The notes under the pieces were generated by a model. The model was not told where the DNA came from and did not search any database. It was given only the letters and a program-made list of their open reading frames with translations. A stretch of 64,000 bases of DNA, taken from positions 1,120,001 to 1,184,000 of the forward strand of contig CM000435.1 in NCBI GenBank assembly GCA_000165345.1. Reading direction: 5' to 3'. Position numbers and translations under genes: made by a program. Each line of letters starts with the position of its first letter. The first letter of the stretch is position 1. Positions 4,061 to 38,200 of the stretch are shown piece by piece.

Positions 4061-4180
4061 GCAATCGGCCATACTACATCGAATATACCGGATCCCATCA
4101 GAACTCCGAAGTCAAGCGGTGTAAGGTTCGGTTAGTACTAGGGTGGGGGACCACCTGGGAAGACCAGAATGTCGATCGCC
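4061..4180 (+). rRNA. 5S ribosomal RNA gene, copy 3 of 3
   Basis: Near-identical 120-nt copy followed by CTTTTT. The three copies share a conserved roughly 30-nt 5' flank (ATGATAATGTAATTTGTAGTTRCCAYCAGC) but otherwise have unrelated spacers of 551 and 791 nt. Confidence 0.92.
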
Positions 4181-4713
4181 TCCCTTTTTAATTTCTTATT
4201 TTTTGATACATTAATTTATTCTGGATGATAAAAACCCTCAAATACAATCTTTATTTTTTCTAGAAAGCTTGGAAAGACAAATGTTGGCAAATACCTAACC
4301 TTGTAGATATACTGAATGTTATTCTTATTACTATTTTTTCTATATATTTATCTATTTATTTGATTTCTTTCCCCCACCCCCCTTTCATCCATCTAATTTC
4401 CATTTTTCTATATATTTCTATTCCTAATTTTATTTTTAACCTACTTGTTCATTTCCAACTTTCCTAATTTCTTTTACAAATAAAATAATTATATGTATAA
4501 AATGATAAAACAACAAAATTGTTCTTGTAAAATTTCTTAAAATTAGTCATTTTTTACCCCTCAAAAAAAAAAATACTTTAATGTTTTATTATATTCTGAT
4601 TTAGTAAAATTAAACCATAATTTACATGTGGGGTGCATGGCGGGAAAGTTTAGGAAGTATAATTATATAGATTAATTTAGGGAGCATAAAAATATAAGAA
4701 ATAAAACAAATAC

Positions 4714-4754
4714 AAAATAAATAAATAAATAAATAAATAAATATATATATATAA
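4714..4754. repeat. (AAAT)n followed by (AT)n microsatellite
   Basis: Direct read: aaataaataaataaataaataaatatatatatata. Confidence 0.9.
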
Positions 4755-4879
4755 TAGTGAAAGAGCTGTTGATTACAGCAACCATTGAGAGAGAAAGTTC
4801 TTGTCAAGTAAACTTTAAAATCTTCATGCTTTTATTATTGGTTGTTGAAAAGAAATTGGAAACTTCTCGACTTTAAGTT

Positions 4880-11454: not shown

Positions 11455-14400
11455 CTAATTATCATGGGTAACGTATGCATCAAGATCTATTGCAACACAA
11501 TTATTAATTGCATAAAGTAATCTTGATCTTAAAATCTCGATACTTGAATATCTTGGTAAAGATAATCTAAATCCACAAGTTGTTGCAATAGGAAGTCTAT
11601 TATCTTGTATAGTTTCAGGGTTATCATAGTTTATTGAAAATTTCCAATCACTTGAGTTATTGTTAACTTGAGGAAGTCTACTCCTACCTGATACAAATCT
11701 AAGAAGCTTTTGTAGTTGCTCATTATTAAAAGTCTCAAGCACTTGAAATAGTTGTTCTTTAAGTTCTGGATGAGGAGAAACTGTATGATTCTTAAGTATT
11801 AATAGATCTATTTTTGATTCTCCACATATTAAATATTCAATCTTTTGATAATTAAATAACATCCTCATCCTTCCCAATGGAATAATGGTACCGAATCCTT
11901 TGAGTATATTTGTCATTATATTACTGTCATCCAACATTCTACATCTTTCTGCTAGCTGAACAAATAGATGAAGATTCTCCAATGTGACTCCCACGCTTGA
12001 TTCCATTTCTCCTCCCTCTATATTTAATAGTGAGGTTATACTTCCATTCATATTTTCTATCTGGAATGTCAAACCTTCAATTTCTGGGATACTGGTTCCT
12101 CCTCCTCGTTCCCGTCCTTCTTCTTCTCTTCCTTCTAGTTGTTTTACATCTTCTTCTCGTTTTCCTCCTCTTCCTTTTCTATGTTTTCTATTTAAACTTT
12201 CATTTTCTATGTATTTGAGAGAGTTAAGCATTTCATAAGCTATACAATCTGCATCCACAAGATCCTTAAGTGAGAGAGGAAGTCCTGAGAACTTTTTCCA
12301 GATCAAAGGATTCAGATTAATATTCATAGCACTCTTAGTTGTAACGCAAATCCCCATTAATCTTCCTAAACATTCATACATCTCACCAATCATCTCTCTA
12401 ATCTCCTTATCTTTTGGCCACTCCCATGGATCAAGCTTATGCATTATCCCTAGATCCTCTTCTATTATGTTCGGTTGTGGGGCTTCCTGCTGAGTAGTTA
12501 TTGGAGTAGGATTCGTATTATTGATAGACTCAGCATGATTAAGCTCTTCTGGAATTGATCCCATTGATACTGGCGAAGAGTTTGAAGAAGAAGAAGATGA
12601 TGATGATTGTGAATTGGAAGAAGATAAAGATATCTCTTCCAAAGCATATCTACTCTCAGTTCTTCTTAATCGAATTGTATCTTCACCATCCTCTTCATCA
12701 GTTTCTATTGAAACTACTTCCCTTTCCCTTTCTCCTTCTCTTTCCACTTCTCTTTCTCTGTTATTCTCAATTTCAATTCCATTATCATTCACATTTTCAT
12801 GATCTCCTTCTCTTCTAAAGAAGGATTGGATCTTGCTGTCTATTGTATAAGTAAGTATCTTAGAATTTCCTGAGTAACTATGGTTACATCTTAAAGAAGG
12901 AATCTTACTAACAATAGCTTTAAATATTTGGTAACCAGCTGTCTGAATCATGAATCCTCCTCCTTCTCTCATCTTAGAATCATATTCTTCAAGATCCTCA
13001 ATTCCAAAAGAAGATTCAGACGAAAAGTTCTTCTTAGTATAATAGTCTCTCTTAAACTTAGAAAGCAAGGATTCAGACTGAACATTTCCTTCCGATACCT
13101 CCTGACCAGATGATCCAAAAAGCAAAAACTCTTCACAAATATATAAGGAATTTATTGTCTTGTAATTAGAATACACAGAGTTAATAGAAACTGTATCCTG
13201 GTTGTGACCAATTGAATGAAGAGCATTGGCACAAGGAGTAAATAATCCATAGTAACGGTTCTCATTTGATAACAACGTTTGATTTGTACCCAAATCATCG
13301 GCAATTCCATTCATATAACCAACACCTCCTCCTAATCTTTGTACATCCTTTGTTGTTGTCGTCTTATCTATATTATCATTGTTCTTACTCATAATTTCAT
13401 TAGAAATCCAAGAAAGAAACTCTTGGAATGGACCCCCAAAATCAGTACTCCCTTCTCCTCTAAATACTATAAGAAATGGTCTTTCAGTAATTCTTAGCTT
13501 CTCTGGAAGCATTTGTAGAATCTGTCTTGTAGATTGTGATAGAAGAGAATACTTTAAAGGATTCCCTCCTGTTACTGCTAAATTCCTATTCAAGTGAACT
13601 GTTAACCCATTATTTGCAGTAGTATTACCATTCCCATCCCTCTTCTTTGAATATATTAACCTCTTCAATATATCATTCCATAGAGAATTCACCAAATTCA
13701 ACTTATAATATGGCTTTAATAATAAATATGAACTTATTGGAATCGGAATATCATATGGTCCCACATGAATTAAATACCTTGGTGACGAGTATATATTGTA
13801 ATATGATCCCCAACTACCAAGCAATTTACTTGATTGTAATAATAATAATGGAGTTGTCATAATAAGATCTTGAGACGTATTTTCTTCGGTACCTATATTT
13901 TGTCTCAAGATCTTATTTTTTAAAACTCCACTTTTTTTAGAATAATAACTATTGAATGCTTTAAAAATGTTCTTATTGAATTGATTTTTAGATAATTTCC
14001 AGAAAAGATCACCAAAGTAATTATTTGAGAAATAAAATGGACAAGATATTCTCAGAAAGTCTTCTTGTTCGTAATTTAATGTTGGTGAGTTAAAGACTCC
14101 AGAAATCATTGGAATTGTAAATCTGGAAATATCATTAAACTTATTCAGAAGTAGAATTCTTCCTGATAAAAATTGTTTCATTATATCCACATACCAAAAT
14201 AATGATTGTAATCTTAGTTTGAATTGATTTTTACCACCATTTCCACTGTTATTTAATTGTATTTTTGTAAATACATCAAGAGAAGTTGTATAGATGGGAA
14301 GAATATTACCAAGAAGAATTTCTATTACTTTGAAAGGAAATTCTTCTTCAGTATAGAATAAGTTATTTAAATCTATTAAAGAAGGTCCATAACTTTCACA

Positions 14401-17400
14401 ATTATTATTTTTGAATTCATCTTCTTCAAACTTTGAAAAATGAAAATCTTCGTATTGTGGATCTTGACTTGAATCTGTCTCGAGATCATTATTATGATCA
14501 CCAATTAATTTAACTTGATCATCTCTATTGAAGCAATATTTTAATACTACAAGAGAAAATAAGTTTTTGATTGAATTTGAGACATAACGAATTACATCCA
14601 AAGAGTCTGAATGAGAGATTTTTGTTCTGGTCCATATATTGGAGTCATGTTTTGGGATCATCTTTGAGATATCCAAAGATCTTATTCCAAGTAAAACCAT
14701 TGATTTATTTCTAAATTCATCTTCTTTAATAATATTTTCTTCAATATCAATTTCAAATTCTGATTTATCAGTAAAGTTTATTCGTTTTAAAAGTTCAAAT
14801 AAGACTACTCTGTATATTTGTTGTTCTCCTAATTCTATGTTTAAAAGTTGAATTAGCTTCTGATCTATAACAGTTTGACAGTGCTGATGCATTTTACATA
14901 GAATCTTCATATCAAGAGAAACTACTGGTCTTGCTAAGAACTTAAAATCCAAAAATTCTTGCTCTTCTCCAATTATACCCAACTTTGAATAACTTGAATT
15001 CTTCTTTTCTGATAAAATCGATTTCTTATATTTGTTATAACAATTCTTATCAAAAAGATCTAGATTAGGTATCCATTCAATCCAAGAGTTACATGATATA
15101 TAATCTAAATTATTATCATAATCTTTTACCAAAGAAAGGAGTTTTCTTATATTGTGAATCCAAATAAATCTTTCATGTTCCACAGTCCAATAGGGATAGT
15201 ATCCATGATGTTTATCTATAGCCTCCTCCATTTCTAATAGCTCCCAACAACACTTAACCATTTGCTCTTGAAGGAGCTTTTCATCAGCTTCTTTTACATT
15301 CCAAGAGTTTTGATCATTTTCAAGGTTTTCTCCTGATTCAGAATAATTAACTCCAGCATTTTTAGGGAAACTAATCTCTATATTTCCCATACCATGAATT
15401 CCATCTCCCATTGAACATTTTACTGTTAATACTTGAGCTATATACTTATAGGTAACATTGATAATATCCAATAATTCTTTGATGTTTCTTACTTGAGAAA
15501 GACCATTGTATATCTCCTCCATTACTTCTTGTGGGATCAAGATCTTATCTGGAGCAGTGATTACTGCTCCAAAAGCTCCTACTCCCAAAAGCGAATTGTA
15601 ATTACTTGATCTATTTTGTGATCTTACATTCCCGAGACGATTTGGTATTTGTAGTTCTGGTCCTGAGCTATTTATATCACCAGAAATATTGGTTACACTT
15701 CCTCTATGATGATAGTGATTACTACTACCAGTACTAGAAGTAATCCTATACCCAGAATTAATCCCAGAAATTTCTCCTCCTAGTGATGAGGTGTTTGATG
15801 TAGAATTAATAGATGAAGGAAGAGGTGGGGATGAAGAAGAAGTAGCAGAAGATGAAGACATTCCTGATTGGTCATATCCAAAATGATTGCTTGGAGGTCC
15901 ACTTTGTGAAACCGATACTGGTTGAGTATAATGATAATAGTTAATACTATTCACATTATACACAAAGTCATCAGTTGGTCTTCCCGTCTCAGGTTTTCTA
16001 TTAATGGACATATTTACAATACTGTTGGATGATAAGCTTGTAGAAGCAGCAATTGATCCTGAATGGCATTTGATTGATCTGATCCATCTATAAAAGAGAT
16101 ACTGAATAATATGAATATTAAGTATCTTCTTATCATAAATTCTGGCTGCAAACAAATCTTTAAAGGAAGTATTTTTTGACTTATTTCTCGAACAATTTTG
16201 AACTATCTCAAGATCTTTAGGATGAGAATTCTTTTTCTGAAGAACTCCTCCAATCTCAAGGGATTCTATTGAAATATATGTATCTGAAGAATGATCTTTT
16301 TCTAAACAAGAAGAAGGATCAAGATCAGCCATAGCCACAATTTGACAATCAGAAAATAGTCCTGGCCAAGGATACTGGTAAGGGGGGAGTAAATTGGACT
16401 TATTTTGAATATTCATATTAATAAATGACTTTTGTGATTCTTTTTCTGCATCAATCTTTTGGCTATTGCAAACTGAGAAACAGTAAAGTTTTTCATATTG
16501 TTGTGTAAACTCTGCAATATCTTCTTTTTCTGCATGGAAGGATATTTTTGGAGGAGATGGGATTATTGCCCAATCAAGCATCTTAGATCCTGTAGTTCCT
16601 GATGAAGATCCAGATCCAGATCCAGATCCAGGTCCAGATGAATTATTAAATTGCTCAGGTACACCAAGATCTGTACCATTTTCTGATTGACCAACTCCTC
16701 CCTGACTTCTATCTCTCTCTACGAATTTTTTAAGGAGTGTTCTATAAAGGGAACCAGCAAATTGATCGTGATTATTTGTAATGTATGGATTCACTCCCTT
16801 GAAAGAGAGAAGTTGAATGATATCTAGATGACCAAAAGCCAAAGCAAAGTGGTAACTAGTATTTCCTAATCTATCTTGAATATTAACATCAGAGTCATAA
16901 ACCACCATTAAGATGTATGCTATTCTAGCATTTCCACTGATTATTGAGGCCATTAATCCAGTCTGATAGAGAGAATATCCTTTAAGCTCTCCCAAAAGCA
17001 TTCCTAATCTTTCCTTCTGAATATTCTGTGCATTAAATTTTCTGTTTTCAATTTGGATTAGATATCTAAACTGATGATGATGAGAGGAGTTATTAAGATT
17101 GGAAATAGAAGAAGAAGACGAGGATGATGAAGACGAGGATGAAGAAAAGGAAGAGGAGGAAGAGTAAGAAATAGTACCAATGGAGTTGGAAATAGTATGC
17201 AGTCCTGAATTTTCTCTTTCTCTGCCTTCAATAACCATCCCATAACAACCAATATATAGAGATAAGTGATCATCAGTATCGAGAAGATTCAAAGCTCTGT
17301 TATCAACATGAACAAAATTCAAAAGATATTGAACAATTTGCTCATTTCCAATCCAACAAGCCAACCAAAATGGAGTTTCATGCTTGACAATTTTTTGGCT

Positions 17401-20400
17401 TCTTTTCTCTGAGAAGACTCTTAAAGATGAAAATGAAGTTGAAGAGGAGTTAAAAGCTTGATGATTTATCTCATCTTGATTACTCATTGAAAAGTGAGTA
17501 TTCAACAAATCCCAATTTAAAACCTGTTCTTGGATTGAAAAGAACTCCCTGGGATCTGGAAACATTACATAATCATAAATATTACTTAGAAGACTTCTGA
17601 TTGTCATCTTTGAACTTGAAATACATTTTGGAATACAATTGAGAATATTATTGTAAAGATCCTCAGTTATTAATACTTTGAATAAAAACTCTCCCTTTTC
17701 TAAATCAATCAAATACTTGGAGTATTTTGAAATCAAATGACTCATTACCAATACGTCATTCTGCAAAATTGTCATCACAAAGAGAGTTCGAACAATCCAA
17801 ATCATCTTCTCTGACAAATTCTGAGTACAATTCATTTGCTGACTAATCTCTTCAAAATGCCCACCTACTTGAGAAAATACTTCTCTTTGAGGGCAACTCT
17901 CCAAACTTAATAACAAGTTTCCACTCATCCTCTTATAAAACTCAGTAAAGTTAAATGAAAAGCTGTATTCATTATTCTTGAAAAATATTAAAGCTGGTAT
18001 ACTTGGTTGAAATTCGATAGTAATTTGATCATGTAATCCATATTTAGGTATCGATACCTTTTGAGATCTTGAATCTGAAAATTCATATGAGTCCAAATTC
18101 TCAATAATAATTTCTTGGTTAGTTGGAATTTTATACTCTTTATACAATTTACTGATCTCAAATGGTAATGGAGGGAGTGATGGAACTATAAATCTTCCAT
18201 CATTAAGCCAAATAAATCTATACATACCATCCAACCAGTCTATTCCAACTCCAAATGTCTGAGGTGATTTCTCCCCAATCTCATTAGAAATCTCATGATC
18301 ATTAAGTTTTTGTATCTTGAATGTTATGCTAAAAGATTTACAAGGGTCCAAAGACTTGAATAAACGTGATTTAATACTAATTTCCCTGTTATCATTCAAA
18401 TAGCATTCATCATCGTTATTATTTTGGATCTGAGTGTCATCCTCGATTCTATTTACTCTCCAAACTGTATTTTCTGGTAAGACCCAATTCTTCCAGTTTT
18501 TGAATAGGGCTGGACTATACAGATCTCTACTTGTATTACTACTACTACAGAAACTAACTCCACTTGGTATATTTGGATGCATGTATCCAAGAAGAGATAA
18601 GCCTTTTTTCTTACGTTTAAGTTCTGATCTTGGAGTCGAATTTTCATTTGAAATTTGATCCAAACTACCTCCTACCACTTTTCTTGAAGGAGTCTGAATC
18701 TTAAGCATTTTCAAACTTCCATTAGAATAACAATCTTTCCGATCTTGGATCTTAAATCTATGTTTGAATTCTGATGGGATCCATTTTACAGAGTCATTTT
18801 CAATTTGCAATTTATCTTGTGAATCGGAACATTCTGATATTACTGGGAGGTAATCTATTTTGGAGATGATTTGAGTATAAGGAATGAAGATATCTTCAAT
18901 ACAACTATTTAGTTGAACGTCGCAGTATATTAAGGAATTAACATCAGATTGTGTTTCCAATTCGGATGATTCTGAGCAATGCGATTTTGATGAAGAATTT
19001 TGAGAAATTGCAAGTGAAGATCTTATGGAAGTTCTCTTGTTACTTTCCAAGTAAATAATTGGAAGAATGAATCTAGCTTGAGGAGGGAGACCAGTTATTG
19101 CTACAGGAGTACCATTCACTTCCAAGATCAAAAGACGATTCTGGAATATCACAGAAATATCTAGATATTTCTGTTTACTTCTAGCTTGAATAGAAAAGCT
19201 TGAGGCAGCTCTAATTCTTGTTAGGCTTTGGGAAATCTCTTCTCCTCCAAAATTTAAGCATTTATCATCATAATAAGAATACAAAATACTACCAAGATAT
19301 CCATTATTTTGACTCAAAAGCTCACTCTTAATGTTTGTATCTCTTTTTTTTGGTTTCAGTTTCTGGAATAGTTCTCCTTGAATCCAATTAGTGTAAAATG
19401 ATGAGATTTCTATTTCACTCAATTGTCTCTCAAAAACAATTCCTCCTACCAAAATCAGCTTAATAGGATGAATACCGTTATTTTCCCCACATTCTGATAA
19501 CTTGTTAAAACGGAAGAGAGCCTTTACACTACTTGAATGCAAACCATTAACATAAAGCATATTATCAGATCTTAAACAGTAAGAAACACTCTTATGACCA
19601 GAGTTTAGAATAACTCTAAACTCATTTCTATTGATCTTCTGCTTCTCTTCAAATTGAATATCTCCATTCTCATAAGAATGTTTTATTACCTCTCTTAGTT
19701 TTATATTCTTCTGGCCAATTTCATATCCTCCATATTCATAAATTAGACCATTTATCCCAGTATTATTAATACTATATAAAATTCTCGGTACTTTATGATT
19801 TCTTTCATAATCGAACTTAAGTTTTAAAGGTTTCAGCTTAAATCCTATGAATCCTGAGTTTCGTTTATGCATCTTATTAAGTTGTGGATTGTAAGTGTTT
19901 TGATTTGGATATAAATATCCATTACTTGCCAAATTCCTTCCTTTGTTCTTTTCAATCAAACCATTTTCTAAGGAGTTTCCATAGTTAATTCTTAAAACTG
20001 AATGATATTCTTGGGAAATTGGACTTTCCCCAAGACTCAATAACATGCTTTTTGGACTAATATAGTTTAAGGTATTTTGAATGTATTTCCAAGGGAAAAG
20101 TGTATTTGGCTTAATATCATCATTAAATATCTCATCATAGATTTCATTTCTGGACAATTTTCTTTCTGATAAAGATCTTGTCTTATTGATTTCATTATTT
20201 GAAAGTATTGCAGTATCACTAGTACTTAACATTAAATGGTTTGATATTGAAATAAAACTCAAATACCTATTAAAGAATGACAGAATATGAGGAAGAGGTA
20301 ATAGAGTATATTCATTTGAAGAATCCAATATACATCTTGCTGAGCATGCCATAAAATGACATACTAATGTAGTATTAATCTTTTGTCTATTGATTGGCTT

Positions 20401-23400
20401 ATAATCTTCAGCTGAAGTAAAGTAATCCCATCCAAGTTGAGTAATTGGTACCTTTCCTAAAATGAGTTCTCTGAATACTGGAAGATTATTAACATTGACA
20501 AGAGGATTTTCCCCATCAAAATTGACTTTGCTCTCATATAAAGATAAAATACATGAAACACAATAGCATATAGAATCAAGTATTCCTTGACTTTGATCAA
20601 TAATTTCTCTTGCTTGATCATGATCATATTCTTGATCTTGAATCTCTTTATATTTACCCAAATCTGATTTCATATTTCTATGATTAGTAATCCAATAAGT
20701 CATTCTACAAGAATCAATTGCAAGCTTTGTTGGGATATGAACTCCATTAGTTAATAGAGAAAAGAGGAAATTCCATGTTAATCTGTTAACAATGGATGAT
20801 CTGATAAAACTTGGGCATAAAGGATGTCTAATAAATTGATCCATTAACCAATGAGCCACATATACAGAAGGAGATAGTGAAGAATATTTGAGTTGTTTTG
20901 GATGATTACCAGAAGATGATTGACCATTATTAGTCTCTTTGATTCTAATAGAAAAGATCTGAATCAAAGAACCAACTAAATGGAATATGATCTCAGTTTT
21001 TAAGAAATGAGTAATAGTTCTTCTCATATGACTCTTCTCTATAACCAGTTGATCCATTACTTGATCCGTATTTTCATCAATTTCTTCATCCAAGTCTATA
21101 TAACAAGATGTAACATATATAAGCCTTTGCCATGAATAGAGTTTATCAGTTAATGCACTTTCACTATCAATTCTATTAAGAATCTTTCTTGTAGAATCTT
21201 TAATAGAGATTTCAGATGTGTTGTGAATATCATTATATATGGATCTTTTAAACATAAGCCAGTAATCAGGAGAGGGAGAAAGATGATTGCTATCATCCAT
21301 ATTTTGATGTGCTGCAGGAAATACGAAATCCTCTCTACCTCTGATTATAAAGTATGTACAGATTCTCATGATTCGAATAATTTGGTAGAATCTCTCAGAA
21401 ATGGTTTTTTCATCAGGTAGTTTATTAGATAATTGTTTATCAGATTTTTGATACTCCTCTGAACTATATTTGGTATCTTGGAAAAGTAACTTATTAATGT
21501 GATCAGGTATAATTCCACAAATATTACATAAGGTATCAATAGCAGAGATCTTAATAGACCAAGTTGCTGTAGTTCCATTAGATTTTAAAACAAGTTTTTT
21601 TGCTGTGATTGGATTAGAACCTTCAAGATTGAATATTCTTTGGTTCATACTTAACATTCCATAAATAGAATTATCTAAATGTCTGACAGCTTTAATCTTT
21701 GAAGAAGAGTAATTTGAATGATTGTCTCTGTTGACAAATCCTTGTCTTAAGATCCACTTCCAAAGGACATTACAATCTTCAGTTAGTAGAATAGTTCTCA
21801 TTTGTATTTCTGGTAAGTCGTATAATTTGTTAGAAGATGATAACTCGTTTTGATTTTGATCTTGACTTTGAAGTGGATCTGAAGAGAAATTCTGATCACA
21901 ATCAATACCGGTACTTGTAATGATGTCATAAAGACTTTTTTCTTCTTTAGTTACAATGGGTTTAAACTTGTGTTGGTTTTTCTCCTGGAAGTTTCTACCT
22001 TTTTGAGAAAATATATTAAAAAGTTCAAGTTCCCTTGTTTCATTCGATGATCTTAATCCTTGATTTGCATCTCCGCAAGAATATAGAGAAAAGTTTCCAA
22101 TTAGAGAAAAGAAGCCAAATAGAATATTCTTCATCTTTTCTGAAAGTTTTGGAGCATCATTACCAGGACAAAACTCCAAGATCACTCTAGAAATTAATGA
22201 AACAATCAAGGAAGATCTTGAAATGAGTACAGAAAGTGAATCTAGAAGATGTTTCTGTAGCTCTAAAATTTTCCCCCATTTGCTTACAAACTCATCTGAT
22301 ATACAAATTTTAAGATTTTCTGTTCCCAATAAGAAGTAAAACTGGTGGATGAATTTCACCTTGAAAAGTTGATAGAATCCTTCTAAGATGAGCTCCAATT
22401 GTGAAAGTTTAAGACCAAAAAGAGATGAATAGCAAAGAACACCACTGTCTATGCTACTACTTAGCCAAGGAAGATCCCCATAAGTAATGTTTGAGCATCT
22501 TCTTCTCAATAAAAGTTCTCGTTCAAAATGAGTTTTTGGATTTTCTTTGCAACTTATGGTATCTGGATGTTTTATAGGTAGATTCATCCCTGAATCATCA
22601 TTTTCTTCTAATGGATTGAGATCTACTCCAAAGATCGTACATATTGAGCACATGAGCAAAGTCTTTTCAATAAGGGAGTCAAGTAATTGCAAAGTTATGT
22701 CTAAATCTTGGTTATCAGAAGGAAGGGACAACTCGAGAGAATCTGAGATTTCATGATCTAAAGTCTTTACAGAAAAGAAAGTCTCAAGATGTGCCTCAAA
22801 GTCAGAACTGATTGACAAAATAGTCTTGTGAATAGACTTGACTAGATTATCCTTCAGGCCAGAAAGTAAACCATGACTTGAAACCAAGATTTCCTGGAAA
22901 AGTTTGATATTCTGAATGTAAACAAGAAAACTAATATTATATAACTGTTTCTTATTATTTAAATCCAATTCTTTCATAACCAGGTTGTGAATTGAAGGAG
23001 AGGCTGAGGAAGATGATGATCCTGAGGCCAGTTGTTGAATCTGTTCTTGAGTTACAACTCTTCCACCATGTATTGATTCAAACCAAGTGCTACTTCTTCT
23101 TCTATATCTAGTTGAGAAAGGAAGTCCTTCATATAGAATAGTAAGTGGATCAAGGATCACAAAAATGACAGAAAGACGGGTATCCTCTGAGATCTGTGCT
23201 AATTCATTAAATTGAACTTCCAGAACACTTCCAATACTTTCCCCTCCAATAAAGATTTCAGACCTCAAAATAGATCCAGAAGAATTTGAGCTTACCCCAT
23301 ATCTTATATCAATCACGGTTCCTTCTGAATATGGAATTTCCAAAGCAAACATATTTTCTGGTAATTGGTAGACACCAGGATTAGAAGAAGTAGATGATGA

Positions 23401-26400
23401 AGTAGACGATGATGATGTAGGAGGTTGTGGACGAAGACCTACAACATCATTTCGTTGGAATACTTCCTCCAATGACATTGTAAGGACATTCGAGGGAGCT
23501 ACAGTTATTCCAAACCTTCCAATTCCAAGAACTCTAAAGGAAAGTATATTAGGTGGTACAGATAATCCCGTAGATTGAAGTCCTCTAAAGGTTAAAGGAG
23601 CTCTACAAATTACAATTCCACCTCCCATGGATGCTTGATCACACTGAACAATTCTTCCATCAATATTAACATTAAAGTTTTCATTTGGAAGTGCACCAAT
23701 GAAGGTAGAAGAGTGAGGATGGTTTCTGAAAGCAGAAGGGACCTCATTGCCTCCACCATTCCCTCCTATAGGATGAAGATCACCACTTCCATTTGTAGTA
23801 GACCCATTTCCTGCATTTGGTGATCCAGATCCAGATTCACCTATCGAGTTCTGATTTTTGGGACTATCTTTTGATTTAGAGTCTCCATCTTGGTTTTCTG
23901 AGTTATAATTAATGAGCTCACTAGAGATGCATTTTAAGAAAGATCTTGGGAATAAGTGAAGATCTGGTAAGGTAACTGAGAAATTACGGATATTGGCTGT
24001 GGATTCTTTATTATTTTGAGTAATTTCGTTAAGTTGAAGAATCCATTCTTGAGTTTCTTGAAAGTCAAGTGCAGTAAAATGAGATCCATAAACCTTGTTA
24101 GTGTTTGTAGATGTTTGAGAAACTTCTTTCTGGTAAATACCTGAGGATAAGTCTTTTATTGTACATTGTCTAATACATTCCGTGAGCATGACTGAGATCT
24201 TTCCTTCAATCTTTGAGTTTCTGGTCCATAAATCTTTAAGAGTATGCTTCTCACCATTATGCAGCTTCAAGAACTTTATCAAGATTGAATATGAAATATC
24301 TCCTGAATTCTGATTATTTCTCAAAAGCCTATTTCTTGTTGTCTCTTGTGAAGATTCTGTCTCAGTTCTATTAAGTTTTGCTGAGTAACATGTTAACTGT
24401 ATTGAATAAATTAAAATATTGAGAATATCTTCAACATACAATTCCAACTCTTCACATAACTCATCATTTCTTCTAAACCCATCTTCAACTTTGCTATTTG
24501 GTTCTTCTATTGACTTGAGGCTCTGGATCTTTTCTGAAATAGATGTTAAGATACTAAAAGTATAGGATATAACTCTTTCTTTAATAGTTTTCTCGCTTCC
24601 TCCTGATATTAAAGTAGTTAAGAGATAAGTCTTAAATAATATCCATCCTCTCTTTTTCAGTCTTTTAATATAGCTATTGTTGAGTATCATGCTATTAATT
24701 CGGTTCAAACTATTTAATAAGATGATTGAAGATGAGGATGATGATGATGATGAAAATGAAAAGGAAGATGCCAAATTCGATGTTGTTGATAAAGATAAAT
24801 TAACTTCAGATCTTATTGAATGAAGCTGATCACTCTGTTCTTTGGATTCAAATTCAACCTCATCTTTATTATTCAATATGAAACGATTTCCTATATTGCT
24901 GTTACTTCTACTCATAAATCCTTCTGTAATGGTTGAAGATAGCATTTCTATTTTAATCTTCTTACTATAAAGCTTAACTATGCTACAACCACATCCTTTC
25001 TCTCCATCTATTTTACTCGTATCATTAACTGTGTGGTTCAAGCTCAAATTTCTTTGTTTCTCCTCAAGATCTTTATTTGAATATTTATTGCATGCATGTA
25101 AAGGTACCAAGGATTCGAATATAAAGCCATCTTTAGAGTCAGTTGTTGTGAGGATATTATTATCTGAAGAACTTGAGCTTTCAAACAAGTCAAGGTTTTG
25201 TATTTGGAACTGATAGTAGAATGACATTTCATCATTTTCTGAAACAGGATCAAATTCATCAATATATTCTGATCTAAATACAAATATATTAGAATCTGAG
25301 TTATAATTGATTCTGTAGAAAGAATTAAACTTGCATTTGTCTGCAAATATTGGGATAGAATGAGTTGGCAAATATGAGAGTCTTTGAATAAATAAGAATA
25401 TACGGGTATGATTTTGATCTCCATTTGAACCTTGGATGACTTGTTCTATATGATATCCTTGCTCTTGGAAGATTCGAATCAAGCTCTTTTCATCTTGAGA
25501 TTTAATTTCAGCAATAATGATCCCAGTTACTGTGTCTCCAATTGTGATTTGAGTATCAAATGATGAACTTGACTCTTGTATTTGAGGTGGTGATATATCT
25601 TTTTCTGTTCCTTGATCTTGAATGAAGGGAAATATACAAGAGCTGATGTTTCTAAGTAAAGAAATCTCATCATTACTTTTTTTTGAGACAATCATAAAGT
25701 ATAATATTACTATTCTGAGGGATGAATCAAACCATAATTCATCATTTTCAGTGATATTTTGGTAGAGTTGTCTTGTTTGTAGGATTTTACTGTTAAAGAT
25801 TCGTGAAATCCATTCTTGAATATTATTCACTATTCCTCCCATATATCTAAAAGTATCTCCAGAAAGAGGTTCTCTTTTCATTTCTATTGTAGAAATAATC
25901 TGTGATAAGCTCTCCATGGATAAGGAGGGTTGCTGTTTTTTGTTTCTTTTTTCAAAACAAAGCTCCAGTAAGGATCTGAACTTGAAATCGTAGATCATAA
26001 CCAGTTGAGCAAGACGAATATATAGCCAGCCTTCATATCTCAGAAATGAATGGAGAGATACTTTAAAGTATTTATGAGATGATGTAATCTTGTAAATTTG
26101 TTCTAAAGTCATCAACTTTAGGAAGGAGGAAAATATTTCAGTCTTAACAACTTTGTTCATATCATGAATGCTTGTGGGCCCGTTCATAATAAAATGAATA
26201 TAGAGGTCCAAAACCTGACTTGAAGTCATTTCAGTATCTATTGCTCCTTCTACATTCAAATTATAAACGTGATCTTGAAGGTGATTAAGACTTGGTAAAT
26301 TCTCTCCCTTCCAATTTGAAGTGCTTAAATTACCAGAAAAAACAGAAGGATCAGAATTGTTTCTATTTAACTTTGAAGAAACAGAAACTGAGGATGATGA

Positions 26401-29400
26401 CGAGCTTGGAACTCCAAAAGATCCCATTGAAGTTATTATTGGCTGCTCAAAGCTTTGTTGAGAAGATCTTCTTCTAATACTTAACAGTTGTTTCAACATA
26501 TCTATATGATGACTGTTGCTATTAAAAATAATATTAGTGTCAGTAGCTCTTCTATTCTTTTTCTTACCTTCTAAAGGTACTCCATTCTCTGAATCTAATT
26601 GAGTAGAACCTGAAATATTCTCCTGTCCAGATTTACAATATACAGCATCAAGATTTTCGTATTCTTCCACGTGAGCGATCGTAGGATTTCTATATCTATT
26701 ACAAAGGTTAAATGGAACATTTTCAATAATCCATTTACATCTTGAAATTGTATTTTCAATAAACTTCTCTTTGATCTTAGCTTGCTCTTGGAAGTCTATA
26801 TTCTCTTGTCCATTTGAACTACATTGTGCTTGCCAGTTTGACAAGAGCTGTGAACAACAATTCTTTGAGATATTTAATGACATCTCTAATACTGCAATCT
26901 TGTTATTATCAAATTTTGAAATATTATCCACTCCAAAAAGATGCATTATTACAGAATATACAGCTAATTGAAGATTTTTATATTTTGGATGGAAAGTTCT
27001 CCAATAGTTTCCTAATAATTGTATACTTTCTGAGTCAGAGTTTATGATCTTTGTGATCAAATTTTGACCCTTTAACTCAGTTTCCATATTTTCTTCATTC
27101 CCAATGGCTTGTTCTGATAATATATTTAATAAGTTATCAATCCAATCAGATCTTGAATTCATTAGGCTAGAAATTCTAAGGTTAAAATTATCAAATCCTT
27201 TATATTCTAGCAGATTCTCTATCACATTTCTGAATATCAATGGATGAATATTAGTTGATAACTGAATTAAATTCTTCTCCTTTATAGAATTAAACAAATA
27301 GTCTCTCAATACAATGGAAATATCAATACTTGCCCAAACAAATAACTGGGATAATAACCAATTAAACTGTATATGAGACTCTACAACAGAATGCATAGAC
27401 TCTTGATTAAGAATTCCTCCTCCTACAGTCAGAAGATCATGATCAAATAAGTCTCTCGAGAAATCAGAGAATTTCTCATTAAATTTCACCATTTTCTTTA
27501 AAATTCCAAGATTTAAGTTAACTAAATTCTCATTAAGAAGGTACTGTAGTTGTCTCTTAATTCTTCCAATAATTACTGGATGAACATTTTGTATACTCTC
27601 AATACTTTCTTCTGATTTCTTTAAGTTATTCATTAATAATTCGGAACAACATAAACTATAAGAAATCACATTTCCCAAGGCTTCAGTTACTCCGTACTTA
27701 AGCATATACCCAAACCAAATAATTTCTGACGATGTATAAATACCACTTTTGTCTTTGTATACATTTTGTATTACACTTCTAATAATATCTTTGGAGTTTG
27801 AATCGAGATTTTTGATTGTATAGTCATTCAAATGATTAAAAGGTACCGGCTTATTTTCTGAACTCTTTTTTGAATCAGGAAACTGGAAAGAACAGTATTT
27901 GCTATATTTATAGTGATATTTGGTTTCAAGCCAATCTTGTGAATGTTTGACTAAGATATCAACAATCTGGTAAATCACTTCTCTCCAGAATATGATGTTC
28001 TTGTCATTCTTTAAGAAATCACGTGATGGCTTCAGATCCTTCAAAGTTTGAACTGAAAGTTCATCTTCTCTGAATTCTTCTTGATTATAAGCATTGTGAT
28101 CAAGTCTCTCTTCTATATGAAGATGATCTTGAGGAACTACAACATCTTTAACTCCTGAAATCATTGAACTACTTATTCTTCTTCTCATTTTCTCTTGATT
28201 TCCACGATCTTCATTGATTATTCCTACTTTAACTATAGGTACTGGTGATCTAGATTGATCATGATTATTATTGTTTCTATCTGACTCTTCAAGACTTTCT
28301 AAGGCCTCTTTACTATTTAGTCCGTAGTTTCTTTCTTTTTTCTTAGAATACTTAGCAAATTGGACTTCCTTTTCAAATCGATCAGAAATTAATTCAATGA
28401 TATTTGCCTGGGAAATCTTCATCCCATTTGTGACAAAAATGTTAATTAGGATGTTTAATATAATCCTATTATCACAGTTATTACGGTATATTGGGGTACG
28501 GATACTCATAATATGCTTACTTGTCTTATTCTTAAAGCTATCATAGTACTTATACATCCAATCAAGAGTAGAATAGTTTTTTCTCTCAGTCTCAATTTGA
28601 ATCTTAATCCAATCTGTTAAGTTCTGGCTTAGAGAGGAGTCTTTTGAAAGAGTATCTCCAAACTGTAAGTTTTCATTCAAGATCTCAGCTTGGTAGTTTT
28701 CACTGGATGAGAAATCTGCATTTCTTTTCAATAACTCTCTAAGTAAAATAAAGAAGCTTGAATTGGTGTTAGAATTCTCACTGTAATCATTACCACAACC
28801 TTGCTTACTCTTTAATAATCTGTTGACTATAAGACTAAAGATATTCGCTTCATCCAAGTATTTAATCAAATCAAGAATTTCGTTCACTTCACTTCTCCTT
28901 GACTTCATAATACCTCTAATGAACGCTAAAATGTTTTCTAATGAAATTGAATGGAAAATTGCCTTAATGACTTCATAATTCATTCTGGAAAGTGCATTAA
29001 TGGCAGTGATTCTACATAACCATTGGAACCCCTCCAAATCTGGGTGTAGAGTTAAGTCCATCAATCTTGAAATAATGTAAAAGAATTTCTCCACATTTGA
29101 TGAGATTTGTTCAATATTGAAATTTTCTCCAGTAATAAATGAAGAATGTTCAAGACTTTCTGATCCTTGGATATTTTTGATAATGTAATCATCTACAGAA
29201 ACATAGTTTCTGAGAATAAATACAAGATTCAGAACTAATTGAATATCAGAAAGTATCTCAGAAACTTGAAATTCTCCTTCATTCTTTTCTTCTTGACAAA
29301 AGTTTGTAATCAAATTAAGTTCATCATTCAAGATTCCAAGAAGCCTTGACAAATCATCATTTCTTATCATATTGTCACTTAGATTATGATAATGATTCGA

Positions 29401-31497: not shown

Positions 31498-31589
31498 TTT
31501 TCAAATTCTTTCTTAGTTTCCACGCCTAGTATTTCTCTAAATTCCGCCTATTATATTCTTTGCTATATATTTCTTAATTGATTATGGCC

Positions 31590-31625
31590 TTGCATGCAAT
31601 GCAAACTTGGAAATTTTGCATGCAG
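31590..31625. promoter_or_regulatory. Paired TGCATGCA-type palindromes in the divergent promoter between the HECT gene and V-ATPase A
   Basis: Direct read: ttgcatgcaatgcaaacttggaaattttgcatgcag. TGCATGCA is the reported binding palindrome of apicomplexan AP2 factors. Confidence 0.4.
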
Positions 31626-31950
31626 TTTCCCCACACTCCTTCAATTTACACCCAAAAATATTACGTGTCAAATTTTCTATTAATTAGAACCAGTTTGATT
31701 TTTAATTCACAAATTTTGCATGTAATTATTAAATGGTCCAACTGGTTTTCTTCTATAATTCACCTTCAAAGGTTTTTTTGTAATTTGATTCACCCTCTTT
31801 TTCTCCTTTTTTATTATTAATATTCTTCTTTCCTTCCTTTATTCTCTTTTCTTTCCTTTCCTTTACACTCTTTAATTTTCGGTCAATTTAGCTTCTAAGT
31901 CTCTCTCGCCTTTTTTTGCCTCCTTCCCCTCATCCAATCTAAATATTTAA

Positions 31951-31976
31951 TGCATGCACATTAAAAGGCGGGAAAC
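31951..31976 (+). promoter_or_regulatory. TGCATGCA plus E2F-like AGGCGGGAAA composite element
   Basis: Direct read: tgcatgcacattaaaaggcgggaaactcgc, about 690 nt upstream of the V-ATPase A start codon. Confidence 0.4.
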
Positions 31977-32658
31977 TCGCAATTATTTTAGAATTAGTAG
32001 AGAAATTTTTAAAGAAGAATTAGAGAGAAAGTGATAGGAAAGTAATAAAGAAGTAGCGAATCATAGAAGAGGAAAAGAAAGAAAAAATGTGTAAATTGTA
32101 TATATAATGATTGAATTTGTTTTCATTGTCAATTTACGTGTAAAATAAGGGTATCTTTATAAGAATAAAAAGTGTCCAAATAAAAAATATGTAGAGTTTG
32201 AGAAACAAAAGGACGTTTTAGATAATTGATTTTTGTATAAGTAAATATTCAATCAAATTACAAATCAGGTTGTCGATAATTTTTTTTCAATTAACAATTT
32301 TTTACTTTTATTAATTTCTATAATAAATTTGCTGCCTAAAATATATATATATATTATAGGATTAAGTTTGCCCGGTAGCGGGTATTTTCTAGAAAACCTT
32401 GAAAAACCTCAAATTAGTAATAAAAAAAATATGTCTATCTGTCTATTATATAGAATAAATACGGAAATTAAGAGGAAAAGAAAAAATAATAAAAGAGTTT
32501 AAAAGGAGCAAATAGGAAGAAATTAGTAAATCCTTCTTTTCATTTGCAACTTGAAAATTCATTACCAGACACTTGGAAACTAGGATAAGCCAGAATATCC
32601 AAGTATTTTAAATAATCTAGGAAGACTTGAAAGTTAGGTTTGAAGAAGAGAAATAAAA

Positions 32659-34485
32659 ATGAAGTCGGACGAAAAGAATTATGGTACAATCTATAAGGTT
32701 GCAGGACCTTTGGTTGTTGCTGAAAATATGAGTGGAACTAAGATGTATGAATTAGTACGTGTAGGTTTCCAAAAATTGGTTGGTGAAATTATCCGTCTTG
32801 AGGGAGATACTGCTTCCATTCAGGTTTATGAAGACACTTTTGGACTTACTGTTGGTGATCCTGTTATTAAAACTGGTCAACCACTTTCAGTTGAACTTGG
32901 ACCTGGTATCTTAGATAATATTTTTGATGGTATCCAAAGACCTTTAAGATTTATCTCAGAATCAACAAAAGATATGTTCATTCCAAGAGGAGTTGATGTA
33001 AAATGTTTAGACCATGATAAACTTTGGGAGTTTACTCCAAATGCAAATTTAAGAGTTGGAGATATTATTACTGGTGGTGATATCTTTGGATCAGTTTATG
33101 AAAATTCTCTATTTAAATCACATAGAATTATGTTACCACCAAATGTACAAGGTAGAGTTGTAAGACTCCCAACAGCAGGAAATTACACAATTGATGAAGA
33201 TTTAATTGAAATCGAATATGATGGTGTTGTAAAGAGTTATTCTATGTGCCATTCTTGGCCTGTTAGAGTTCCAAGACCATGCTTGGAGAAGTTACAAGGT
33301 AATACTCCTTTATTAACAGGACAAAGAATTTTGGATGCTTTGTTCCCATCAGTACAAGGAGGAACTTGTGCTATTCCAGGAGCTTTTGGTTGTGGTAAGA
33401 CATGTATTTCTCAAGCTTTGAGTAAATATAGTAACTCTGATGTTATTATTTACATTGGTTGTGGAGAAAGAGGAAATGAAATGGCAGAAGTTCTTACAGA
33501 ATTCCCTGAGCTTTATACTATGGTTGATGGAAAGAAGGAGTCAATTATGCAAAGAACTTGTTTAGTAGCTAATACATCAAATATGCCTGTCGCTGCTAGA
33601 GAAGCTTCCATCTACACTGGTATTACACTTTCTGAATACTTTAGAGATATGGGATGTAATGTTTCTATGATGGCAGATTCAACTTCTCGTTGGGCTGAAG
33701 CTCTTAGAGAAATTTCTGGTAGATTAGCTGAAATGCCTGCAGATTCGGGTTACCCAGCATATTTAGGCGCCAGACTTGCTTCATTCTATGAAAGATCAGG
33801 AAGAGTTAAATGTATGGGTTCCCCAGATAGAGAAGGTACAGTAACAATTGTTGGTGCAGTTTCTCCACCTGGTGGTGACTTTTCTGATCCAGTTACTACA
33901 GCTACAATAGGTATTGTTCAAGTCTTTTGGGGATTAGATAAGAAGCTTGCTCAGAGAAAACATTTCCCTTCAGTTAATTGGAATACATCATTCAGTAAAT
34001 ATTCAAGAGTTTTGGAGCCATACTTTGATTCAGTTGATCCAGAATTTAATGGATTAAGGCAGAAGATTTCTGAGATTTTACAGAAAGAGAATGAGCTTGC
34101 TGATATTTTACAGCTTGTTGGAAAGGATTCACTTTCTGAGGATCAGAAGATTGTTTTGGAGGTTGCTAAGATTATTAGGGAAGATTTCCTTCAACAAAAT
34201 GCTTTTTCAGACTATGATTTTACTTGTCCAATTCAAAAGACTCTTGGTATGATGAAGACAATTGGTAATTTATATGATCTTTCTCTAAAAGCTGTTAAGG
34301 ATTCATCTCAACAACAACAAAAGATTGGCTGGTCGACAATTTATAATTCAATGAGAGCTACTATTAATAAGATCACTTCAATGAAATTCTTGGACCCAAG
34401 ATTAACTGATCAAGAAATCAAGAACCACTTTTCTCAGCTTAATGAGGAGGTTTCAAACCAGTTCAGAGCTATTTCTGATAAGTAA
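32659..34485 (+). CDS. ATP6V1A: V-type proton ATPase catalytic subunit A
   Basis: Full-length 608-aa match to V-ATPase A: N-terminal [17 protein letters not shown], Walker A GAFGCGKT, and [11 protein letters not shown]...[31 protein letters not shown]. No intein or intron is needed. Confidence 0.95.
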
Positions 34486-35256: not shown

Positions 35257-38200
35257 TCAATCCTTTGGTTTTGGTTGTTTCTTTCCGTTATTCTTTTTAT
35301 ATTTGGAAGGAGGCTTTGGAGATCCCATAGAAGAAGGTTCAGCAGCGTTTGCTCCTGCTTCTTGTCCTTTTTTTCCTGTTCTTCTTCCTCCTCCTCCTCC
35401 TCCTCCTCCTCCTCCTCTACCACTTTGTTTAGGAGATGGTGATCTACTTTCTTTTCGATCACGTCTTTGTGTATTTTCTCCTTCAACTTCATTGTTATGA
35501 TGATGATAATGATGATTACCGTCTTTGTGGTTTTGATGATGATCTCTATGGTGGTAACTTTGATTATGATTATGATGCTGGTTTTGTTGATACTTCTTAT
35601 GACCAGCACCTTTCTGAGCCTCAGGTGATGAAGATTCAATACTTAATTCTGAACTCCTTCTATTAGTATTTTTCGGAGATTGCTCATCTATTTGAATTTG
35701 AGATTTTATATCCAAATTTTCACTATTTCCAGCTCCAATTCCAAATTCAGTCTCATGTGAATCTGATAATCTTGGAGATGAAAAAGCTGACATATCTTCA
35801 TCTAAATGACCAAATGTTGGACTTATTGTTGCTATTTCTCCTTCTCCTCCTTTTATAAGTAATTCATTTTCCATTATTTGTTCTTGTATTCTATTCTCTT
35901 CTTCTAATTGATCACATCTATTTCCAATATCATCATCCAAATCATTCATATTAATATCATCTCCTCCCCAGATTTGATCTTTCACATAATTAAAGCCATT
36001 ATTATGAAAATCCTCAAGTAGATCAGAATTTAATGCTTGAAAAAGTTTATCCCAAGATGCAACAGGACGATTAATCAATTCTTGATTAGATAATAATGAT
36101 TCTAATTTAAGAGATTCTTGATGAAATGGAAATAATTCCAAATTTTCATTAGGACTTGCTAAAAGTTGTTCACTTTTCTTATTAAAATCTCTCCATTTAA
36201 TAACAATTTCCTCCAATTTAGATGGATAATAACATCTAGCAAATAATGCTGCATAAGGTATTAAATCTGATTGAATTAAATCTTCAATACAAGATTCCTT
36301 ATCCTGAAGTAAAGTATGACATATAAATGCTGTATTCCATAAATTCTGTTTACTTGCCATTTTTGCTACATATTTTAATCCTTGAATATCACCTATACAT
36401 GAATAAATTAATAATAAAGAATCCAAATCCTGTACTTCCCTATAACAAGCAATTGCCATAGAAAACCTTCCTTTCTCTAAAGCTATATCACCCAAAACTT
36501 TCCATCTCTTTCTATTCACATTTGAAATATCAACCATTCCTTCTCCTTGTTTTATATCTTCTTGTACATTAGGAGTAATAGATTCCATTGTAATACTAGC
36601 ATTTTCAGCCTGATCTTTAAGTTGTATTTCCTGTAAAATAGAAATACATAACTCAAATTTACCTAAACCTAATGCTAAATCAAACTTTTGATCTTGATCA
36701 TCAGTTATTGATAAAGCTTTCTCTTTATATCCTTGTATCTCCAAAAATCTGGCAATTTTTGTATGTAGATTTGGTGGTATTCTACCCCAATAAACATTCT
36801 CAGCAGTCTCAAAATCTTTATTAATAATACAAGACTGATATTCAATATAATTTAAATCTAATGAATAACTAATACAGTTAAAATCTTTACTCATTAACAT
36901 AATTCTATGAATCTCTTTAACATATCCCAATATATGATACATAGTTTTTTCTGGAAGATATGCAACCAAATCAATAAATCCATTCATCCATATTTGTAAT
37001 CGCATCTGAGATGTAACATATACAAAACATGTAGATATCCATACTCCACTCTCAACTTTATCATTAATTTCTGATATAAAATCAAAAGCTATTTCTATAC
37101 CGTCATTATTGTCCACATGCATATTAATACCGGTATGGTGATCATTAGAAGGATATGATGGTGATGATAATATTTCTTCAACTTGATTTTTATTATATTT
37201 AAGTATATAAAATGTATCAGAAGATGTAATACATACATAATTACCAATATCATCCCAATATACATTATTAATAGGAGATGAAACATCAATTCTTCTAATA
37301 AGACGGCATTCATTCCAATCATAAAAACAGATAAATTCATTGGATTTAACACCTAATAATTGACCACCAAAAATTTCATCAACAAAAAAACTTGGAAGAA
37401 ATGAAAAGCTTTCTTTAAAGTTATTATAAATAACAATTCTACCTCCATTTTCTCGAATTGCAAAGAAATGACCATCAATTGACCATGAAAGTTCAATAGC
37501 TTTTCCAAAACATTTACTTCTTAAAGCTTGTGTAGTATAAATAACAAATTCACCATCACCACAGACTGATAAGAATCTACCATTAGGATGAAATTGAATA
37601 TCTTGTGGATATATTTCACTACATCCAAGTTCTTTATAAGGTAATATAACTCTTTCACCATCACCAAATTCAAATTCCCATTCAGTTCCTGATGAAGATT
37701 TAGTAGCAAGTGCTCTAAGATTAGTTTGACATATTTCAGTACCTTTTGCAATAAGTATCTTACCACTATTTAAAGTAGCAAGAGGTTGCTCAGAACCAAT
37801 TTTAACAACAACAGATCCTTCATCATAACCAATTCCAAGAATATTTTCACTTACTGATAAACACCAACATCTATCTAACATATAATTCAAAGTACATTCT
37901 AATCTGTAAGTAGTTGAATGCCAAATTTTGATAGTACCATCTTCACTACAAGAAAGAATAAGAGGAAGTTGATTATGATAAATAACGGATCTAACAGCTT
38001 TAGTATGTCCAGTAAGTACTTGAATACATTGTTTTGTTTGGTAATCCCAAACTCGAACAGTCTTATCATCACTTCCTGTTGCTATGTAAGGTTTTTCAGC
38101 TGAAGGAGAATAAGCCAAACAATTGATTCCACCTTCATGTCCTGTTAAACTATATTTGGGAGTATTAACAGTATTATTAACTAAAGAGCATATATTAGGC

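Follow-up and report, generated by a model that had tools for sequence, protein, structure and literature searches.

PfHECT1 (PF3D7_0628100), described as the largest protein of Plasmodium falciparum, exceeds 10,000 amino acids (aa) and combines a HECT domain with three ankyrin repeats (PMC10993292). Among PP1-dependent phosphoproteins it ranks first at egress, a step that is sensitive to heclin (PMC7363832), and deletion of PfHECT1 results in slow growth. Among the HECT ligases of Cryptosporidium parvum, cgd7_4990 was placed opposite PFF1365c (PfHECT1) by Ponts et al. (2008; PMC2408969), who gave 'none' as the C. parvum counterpart of MAL8P1.23/HEUL. Here we analyse a 64,000-nt stretch of DNA (GCA_000165345.1, contig CM000435.1, positions 1,120,001–1,184,000; hereafter the window) in which one minus-strand open reading frame (ORF), 11455..31497, encodes a protein of 6680 aa. 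It is very probably a real single-exon C. parvum gene for a catalytically competent giant HECT ubiquitin ligase (E3), one of a pan-apicomplexan family of giant HECT proteins with ankyrin repeats that includes PfHECT1. The core of this was already proposed from the DNA letters alone (the sequence-only reading: one uninterrupted gene, a giant HECT E3 with ankyrin repeats, the rest unassigned) and is borne out by Pfam matches, an aligned catalytic Cys and collinear orthologues. The gene itself is ordinary and already known, having been annotated since the C. parvum genome publication and listed as a HECT E3 in the 2008 apicomplexan survey; the domain details given below are useful and incremental.

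The open reading frame and its orthologues

Exact-sequence look-ups of the neighbouring ORFs show that the window belongs to C. parvum chromosome 7. The plus-strand ORF at 4880..11335 matches QOY40824 / CPATCC_003723 exactly (2151 aa; orthologues tagged 7g4980), and the plus-strand ORF at 32659..34485 is an exact match to V-ATPase subunit A (QOY40826 / CPATCC_003725). Flanked by CPATCC_003723 and CPATCC_003725, the giant ORF should therefore be CPATCC_003724, that is cgd7_4990, an identification resting on gene order. Its Cryptosporidium orthologues already bear annotations such as 'ubiquitin ligase with a HECT domain at the C-terminus'.

The ORF listing and translation give a complete single-exon coding sequence on the minus strand (11455..31497), with an ATG start, 6680 codons and one terminal stop, and with an in-frame stop four codons upstream of the ATG. 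Its 20,043 nt make up 31.3% of the window, at a GC content of 31.9% (AT ≈68%) and a GC content at third codon positions of 24.9%; the sequence-only reading had 31% and about 70% AT and was silent on the strand. With the base composition of the window (stop probability 0.078 per codon) the probability of 6680 stop-free codons is ≈1e-235. The five remaining frames of 11455..31497 are full of stops (352–800 each, with a maximum open run of 133 codons), and an uninterrupted frame of this length is thus beyond chance, as had been claimed.

Searching with residues 1–4999 returned six proteins, all from Cryptosporidium, with lengths of 6359–6637 aa, 100% query coverage and identities ranging from 89% (C. 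meleagridis) down to 40% (C. bovis). The C. andersoni orthologue (6215 aa) is additional to these six. For at least seven Cryptosporidium species the orthologue is full-length and matches 100% of the query in collinear fashion: C. meleagridis, chipmunk genotype I, C. ubiquitum, C. felis, C. bovis, C. andersoni and one further relative. A global alignment of the Cryptosporidium proteins shows conservation over the full length with no frame disruption, and the start Met is common to 7/7 aligned proteins. These full-length orthologues uphold the claim of a single gene that is not split by frameshifts, and their collinearity supports the view that the giant gene would be free of introns and read as a single transcript.

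The C. meleagridis model (P0001) is without a 17-aa stretch, FYQIIRIMRICTYFIIR, at approximately residues 3372–3388, which is kept in all other species. This looks like a spurious intron or a gap in the gene model.

The catalytic domain and its split N-lobe

The C-terminal HECT domain seen in the sequence-only reading was found by Pfam (PF00632, the check proposed there) at residues 6358–6667 of 6680, with E=1.1e-43 and 150.5 bits versus a cut-off of 23.9. This detected part (11497..12426, minus strand) comprises the remaining N-lobe and the C-lobe. The motif LPIATTCGFRLSLPRY is present and its Cys is residue 6641, 39 residues from the C-terminus (codon 11575..11577, minus strand, in the motif LPIATTCGF). 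In alignments with HECTD3 and WWP2, Cys6641 coincides with their catalytic Cys (TC motif), and it is invariant in all aligned family members, including those of Eimeria, Babesia and Theileria. Within Cryptosporidium the last 56 residues are almost invariant together with the catalytic Cys, and the final 180 residues are 89–96% identical between C. parvum and C. bovis. By analogy, the giant HECT protein is likely to have ligase activity.

The canonical start of the HECT N-lobe, FRGEGSTDFGGPFQEF, was found at approximately residues 6012–6027, some 340 residues upstream of the Pfam match. It lies within a highly conserved segment, module M6 (13117..13794, minus strand; residues 5902–6127), which covers the region preceding the HECT domain and the beginning of the N-lobe. 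A family-wide profile of residues 5902–6127 gave 16 matches, to HECT ligases only, and matched the N-lobe start of WWP1, WWP2, SMURF and ITCH (best E 3e-5). With the suspected insert deleted in silico, residues 5984–6037 align to WWP2 chain residues 32–82. The gap between the N-lobe start segment and the part covered by the catalytic profile is ≈28 residues in WWP1 versus ≈335 in C. parvum. An insert of ≈300 residues thus divides the HECT N-lobe. Its main low-complexity part is Ser/Glu-rich (12403..13176, minus strand; residues 6108–6365) and measures 230–273 aa in 7/7 aligned Cryptosporidium proteins. Gaps at the same site are shorter in Babesia, Eimeria and Theileria, the Cryptosporidium insert being the longest. 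As judged from these alignments, the bilobal HECT domain is complete, including the N-terminal, E2-binding part of the N-lobe, and is interrupted by this insert.

Comparison of the family HECT profile with the PDB placed HECTD3 (PDB 9r85) first, with 134 bits and E 7e-38. The other solved HECTs scored lower: E6AP 98.6, WWP1 97, UBR5 93.8, TRIP12 92.8, HUWE1 84.6, HACE1 77.9 and TOM1 75.1 bits. The giant HECT and HECTD3 also have the C-terminal signature NCVAID-x-D in common, and by these sequence comparisons the catalytic domain is closest to HECTD3 among solved HECTs. HECTD3 belongs, with HERC1, HERC2 and KIAA0614/HECTD4, to the class I HECTs, SPRY domains are exclusive to class I, and the KIAA0614/HECTD4 family has alveolate members (Grau-Bove et al., PMC3673628). 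A class I affiliation of the apicomplexan giant HECT family is plausible. The class I feature, a SPRY domain, is present in cgd7_4990 at the level of a predicted fold only, as described below.

Conserved modules and the apicomplexan family

The most conserved non-catalytic module is block C (M2; 23089..23748, minus strand; residues 2584–2803), a cryptic SPRY-like beta-sandwich with 76–84% identity between C. parvum and C. bovis. The motifs GRFG-TVAP, F-RNDVVG and SIGSVLEV are found in it phylum-wide, and a Cryptosporidium-specific Ser-rich loop is located at ≈2690–2715. AlphaFold2, given a diverse alignment of 14 sequences, predicted a confident beta-sandwich (mean predicted local distance difference test (pLDDT) 80.6; predicted template modelling (TM) score 0.79), in which the low-confidence loops coincide with the Ser-rich insert. 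The predicted sandwich can be superposed on solved SPRY domains, which are bent beta-sandwiches. At the sequence level, the block C profile had no meaningful PDB match (best E 0.63). We consider block C to be probably a SPRY-like domain, and it might serve as a receptor domain that binds substrates or partners. Literature searches found no earlier mention of SPRY together with apicomplexan HECT ligases.

The sequence-only reading had suggested SPRY or DOC-like segments in the body. The SPRY guess holds for one module (2584–2803) and at the level of the predicted fold; it has no Pfam SPRY match behind it. The DOC-like segment was not recovered, as there is no Pfam DOC/APC10 match and the sandwich of block C fits SPRY rather than DOC. 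Several SPRY repeats arising by internal duplication were also considered and dropped, since no second copy of block C turned up, either when five beta-looking segments were run by BLASTP against the complete protein or when the block C profile was compared by sliding hhalign with the orthologue alignment.

Relatives were collected with an exhaustive HMMER search, in which a profile of residues 2560–3759 was run against 1.84 billion (1.84e9) representative proteins at E<=1e-3. It gave 21 matches. All nameable ones are apicomplexan, mostly giant HECT proteins or fragments of them, and no relatives outside Apicomplexa were detected for these residues among the 1.84e9 representatives. The matches include proteins of Eimeria stiedai (7626 aa), of Babesia bovis, B. 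ovis, B. gibsoni and another Babesia (4464–4857 aa, annotated as HECT or HECT/ankyrin), of Theileria orientalis (5270 aa) and of Rhytidocystis pertsovi, as well as a 922-aa Plasmodium ovale fragment named 'HECT-domain (ubiquitin-transferase), putative, partial'. Block C is common to nearly all of the non-Cryptosporidium matches, the P. ovale fragment among them. A Plasmodium-like fragment of 322 aa also carries it.

A module map was drawn from local hmmsearch comparisons of the full-length Cryptosporidium profile with the non-Cryptosporidium relatives. M2 (independent E-values (iE) of 1e-22 to 1e-38), M4, M6 and HECT (residues 6369–6680 in the map) keep their order in the proteins of Eimeria stiedai, four Babesia and Theileria orientalis and in the environmental relative P0034, and M5 does so in part. 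The ankyrin repeats of B. bovis (3530–3607) lie between M4 and M6, the same relative place as in C. parvum. Together this is good evidence, at the level of sequence, for one pan-apicomplexan family of giant ankyrin-HECT ligases.

The remaining modules of the map, all on the minus strand, are less widely shared or have no counterpart among known domains. M1 (26698..27066; residues 1478–1600) is a helical-looking conserved block, 58% identical in C. bovis, to which Babesia (B. bovis iE 4e-7) and Rhytidocystis have weakly matching segments, and M3 (21307..21822; residues 3226–3397) is shared with the Rhytidocystis-like relatives P0034 and P0036. M4 (20650..21198; residues 3434–3616) is helical, has the motif WLMDQFIRHPLCP and occurs in Eimeria, Babesia, Theileria and environmental relatives. 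Across Cryptosporidium and these three genera its core D-x3-RHP is invariant and the following [LC]-C nearly so. No M4 relatives were found in the PDB or Pfam (best PDB-profile E 0.08, IsdB noise), and on these comparisons M4 appears to be a module restricted to Apicomplexa. M5 (17911..18369; residues 4377–4529) is beta-looking and is shared with Eimeria and two coccidian-like contigs. It seems SPRY-like by eye (FGVGIDW...WLNDGRF), without support at the sequence level: there was no PDB or Pfam match (PDB-profile E ≈1) and hhalign gave no relation to block C.

Compared with PDB sequences, the profile of residues 2560–3759 gave nothing or noise. Pfam at E<=10 found no meaningful family for block C or for the segments 470–650, 1990–2140, 3870–4190 and 4320–4570, nor for any member of the alignments A2 (SPRY-like), A3 (M4) and A6. 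Low-confidence modelling weakly suggests that residues 2845–3759 are mainly helical.

Ankyrin repeats, which the sequence-only reading had also noticed, were matched by Pfam Ank/Ank_2 (also Ank_4) at residues 4707–4731 and 4843–4907. The array of at least three repeats (16777..17379, minus strand; residues 4707–4907) is broken by ≈100 inserted aa of low complexity, among them 13 consecutive Ser. Ser is the commonest residue of the protein (807/6680), and the many poly-Ser tracts mentioned earlier could be located at seven sites (residues 1698, 2107, 2249, 2827, 4779, 4785 and 6298). Besides HECT and Ank no Pfam family was found at E<=0.1 over the 6680 aa (no DUF908, DUF913, WWE, UBA, DUF4414, SPRY, APC10 or ARM), which agrees with the earlier view that the N-terminal ≈6000 aa have no assigned domains beyond ankyrin. 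At the same threshold Pfam gave no support for the armadillo or HEAT repeats suspected in the N-terminus. A scan of the protein found no transmembrane-like hydrophobic windows above 1.8.

Alternatives, mechanism and known systems

Could the long ORF be an artefact, through mis-assembly or the fusion of adjacent genes, or else a pseudogene in decay, rather than one functional gene? The C. canis orthologue is divided into at least three models (P0007, P0008, P0033), the exact 6680-aa sequence was not found in the protein collection, and a missense difference in cgd7_4990 between IOWA II assemblies has been reported (PMC12179316). The C. canis models, however, lie on separate short contigs (7.7 and 18 kb), suggestive of a fault in the draft assembly, and an artefact would hardly leave orthologues of 6215–6637 aa collinear over the whole query in seven Cryptosporidium relatives, whole-length conservation without frame disruption next to stop-filled other frames, and the same module order in other apicomplexan genera. 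We give this explanation next to no credence. A genuine protein might still be mainly a structural scaffold, with its HECT crippled by the 300-residue insert (a pseudo-ligase). The N-lobe inserts are indeed much larger than in any solved HECT, and the insert is of low complexity and poorly conserved. Against this, Cys6641 and the C-lobe around it show practically no variation between C. parvum and C. bovis, the Cys is kept in Eimeria, Babesia and Theileria, and the N-lobe elements flanking the insert are conserved on both sides. An insert is found at this site family-wide with variable length, as expected of a tolerated surface loop, and heclin-sensitive HECT activity has been implicated for PfHECT1 (PMC7363832), so that a crippled HECT is very unlikely.

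The sequence-only reading compared the protein with HUWE1 or HEUL, and a Cryptosporidium orthologue of HUWE1/TOM1/PfHEUL would share its similar size, the HECT at the extreme C-terminus and the long unassigned N-terminal body. The comparison stands for size and fails for descent: DUF908/DUF913, WWE and UBA, which that reading had proposed to look for, gave no match at E<=0.1 over the 6680 aa, and neither did DUF4414. With the family profile HUWE1 (≈85 bits) and TOM1 (75) fall well short of HECTD3 (134), Ponts et al. give HEUL no C. parvum counterpart ('none'; PMC2408969), and the internal modules are those of the Babesia, Theileria and Eimeria ankyrin-HECT giants. Such an orthology is hardly believable, and cgd7_4990 is by sequence of the PfHECT1 type and not of the HUWE1/HEUL type. 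The last alternative concerns block C alone, which could be a carbohydrate-binding, lectin-like domain of concanavalin A fold, or another jelly roll such as DOC/APC10, instead of a protein-binding SPRY. Foldseek was marginal for the predicted model (E ≈1e-3, TM score 0.35–0.46) and interleaved legume lectins with SPRY domains, both of which fall in the concanavalin-A-like sandwich class. We find a lectin or other jelly roll unlikely and prefer the SPRY-like domain; the marginal and mixed Foldseek result is the reason why we call it with moderate confidence.

Several points count against our preferred reading of a catalytically competent giant HECT E3 of the PfHECT1 family, or against parts of it. 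That Foldseek result is one, and the SPRY call is based on one predicted model, with no Pfam SPRY signal even at E<=10 for the C. parvum sequence and 14 homologues. A description of the body as a helical scaffold is weak because the AlphaFold2 model of residues 2560–3759 (1200 aa, from an alignment of 7 sequences, Cryptosporidium only) reached a mean pLDDT of only 36.8, which is low confidence. The single transcript and its expression are deduced from sequence. Neither full-length PfHECT1, nor the giant HECT of Toxoplasma gondii, nor any other full-length Plasmodium or Toxoplasma protein is among the 21 matches, which may reflect a length limit, a composition filter or a library gap and makes the PfHECT1 link indirect: it relies on the 922-aa P. 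ovale fragment with the PF3D7_0628100 product name, on the shared architecture of ankyrin repeats and HECT, and on the 2008 similarity table. No conserved RVxF motif for PP1 docking was found (five RVxF-like matches in 6680 aa, with 5.8 ± 2.6 expected by chance, and none kept in all six orthologues), and PfHECT1-style PP1 regulation or direct PP1 docking can therefore not be transferred to cgd7_4990.

By analogy with solved HECTs, ubiquitin-charged E2 would dock on the N-lobe, which begins near residue 5980 and is divided by the insert. Ubiquitin would then move to Cys6641 in the C-lobe as a thioester, and finally to lysines of substrates held by the non-catalytic body. This body may act as a long scaffold with the SPRY-like domain (2584–2803), the ankyrin array (4707–4907) and at least three further modules (M1, M4, M5), of which the SPRY-like and ankyrin modules would be the likeliest docking sites for substrates or partners. 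A role in late-stage development or egress, under control by phosphorylation, could be suggested more weakly from the orthology with PfHECT1. We also entertain, as a tentative and rather doubtful extension, that the family is a lineage-specific class I (HECTD3/HECTD4-like) offshoot in which the SPRY-like module receives the substrates of a ubiquitination pathway conserved for late stages or egress, alongside the Apicomplexa-only module with the RHPLCP motif. If so, the SPRY-like and RHPLCP modules, having no detectable sequence relatives beyond the phylum, would each offer a parasite-specific handle on an E3 whose orthologue Plasmodium requires in order to grow normally.

For a protein class previously described just as HECT plus ankyrin, the analysis adds a collinear module map from Cryptosporidium to Babesia and Eimeria, a predicted SPRY-like domain whose conservation is second only to that of the catalytic lobe, the split N-lobe, and an affinity to HECTD3 rather than HUWE1. 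The SPRY-like candidate binding domain is a defined fragment of ≈220 residues that could be used for experiments instead of a 0.75-MDa protein.

The giant gene and the V-ATPase A gene point away from each other across a common intergenic region of 1161 bp (31498..32658), a putative promoter region. It contains three TGCATGCA palindromes (31591–31598, 31617–31624 and 31951–31958) located 94–461 bp upstream of the ATG of the giant ORF. This palindrome resembles a known promoter element of the AP2 type in Apicomplexa. The window has 11 copies versus 0.43 expected, a number reached in 0/100 shuffles; the remaining copies are at 1236, 1240, 3522, 25089, 41814, 47414, 57129 and 57235, and 10 of the 11 are intergenic.

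The convergent neighbour on the other side, cgd7_4980 (4880–11335, plus strand), encodes a 2151-aa 'large uncharacterized low complexity protein' for which Pfam found no match at E<=0.001. Only 119 bp separate its stop from that of the giant ORF, and the 3' ends of both genes must accordingly either overlap or come very close to each other. Further exact matches were obtained for the ORF at 35257..38718 (minus strand), which encodes coatomer beta-prime, and for that at 39965..41575 (plus strand), a ubiquilin-like / ubiquitin-family protein (C. parvum QOY40828). The ubiquilin gene is ≈8.5 kb from the HECT ligase gene, and the closeness of these two ubiquitin-pathway genes is probably a coincidence. 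Pfam assigns ordinary housekeeping or regulatory functions to the other long ORFs of the window, which encode a protein kinase with an EF-hand-like tail (47834–52021, plus strand), a SET-domain protein (57482–59212, minus strand), a thioredoxin/PDI-like protein with an OST3/OST6-like region (59441–61111, minus strand) and an EF-hand protein (32–1132, plus strand). All four are free of introns, and long intron-free ORFs are typical of the compact C. parvum genome.

Among HECT ligases of other types, HUWE1, TOM1 and PfHEUL resemble cgd7_4990 in their megadalton scale and in having the catalytic domain at the extreme C-terminus. HACE1 (≈900 aa, with N-terminal ankyrin repeats) and HECTD1 both combine ankyrin repeats with a C-terminal HECT as seen for cgd7_4990, but HACE1 reaches only 78 bits against the 134 of HECTD3 in the HECT comparison, and the Sad1/UNC and MIB-HERC2 domains of HECTD1 were not found in cgd7_4990. 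Ankyrin repeats have been acquired convergently in several HECT classes (PMC3673628). Human HECTD3, with the closest catalytic domain, is a protein of 861 aa with a DOC/APC10 domain and without ankyrin repeats, SPRY or an N-lobe insert, whereas cgd7_4990 has no DOC match. The giant class I ligases HERC1 and KIAA0614/HECTD4 have SPRY and differ from cgd7_4990, which has no RLD or WD40 match.

The nearest described systems are PfHECT1, here compared by its published description, and the ankyrin-HECT giants of Babesia, Theileria and Eimeria. PfHECT1 is reported to have a PP1-docking (RVxF) site near the HECT domain, in contrast to cgd7_4990 with no conserved RVxF site, and the size varies from 4464–5270 aa in piroplasms and 6680 aa in C. 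parvum to more than 10,000 aa in P. falciparum. Compared with the other giants of the family, Cryptosporidium stands out by the longest N-lobe insert and by extra poly-Ser loops in its SPRY-like and ankyrin modules. Like cgd7_4990, all of these proteins are giants in which ankyrin repeats precede a C-terminal HECT, and the Babesia, Theileria and Eimeria proteins also share with it the collinear SPRY-like block, M4 and M6.

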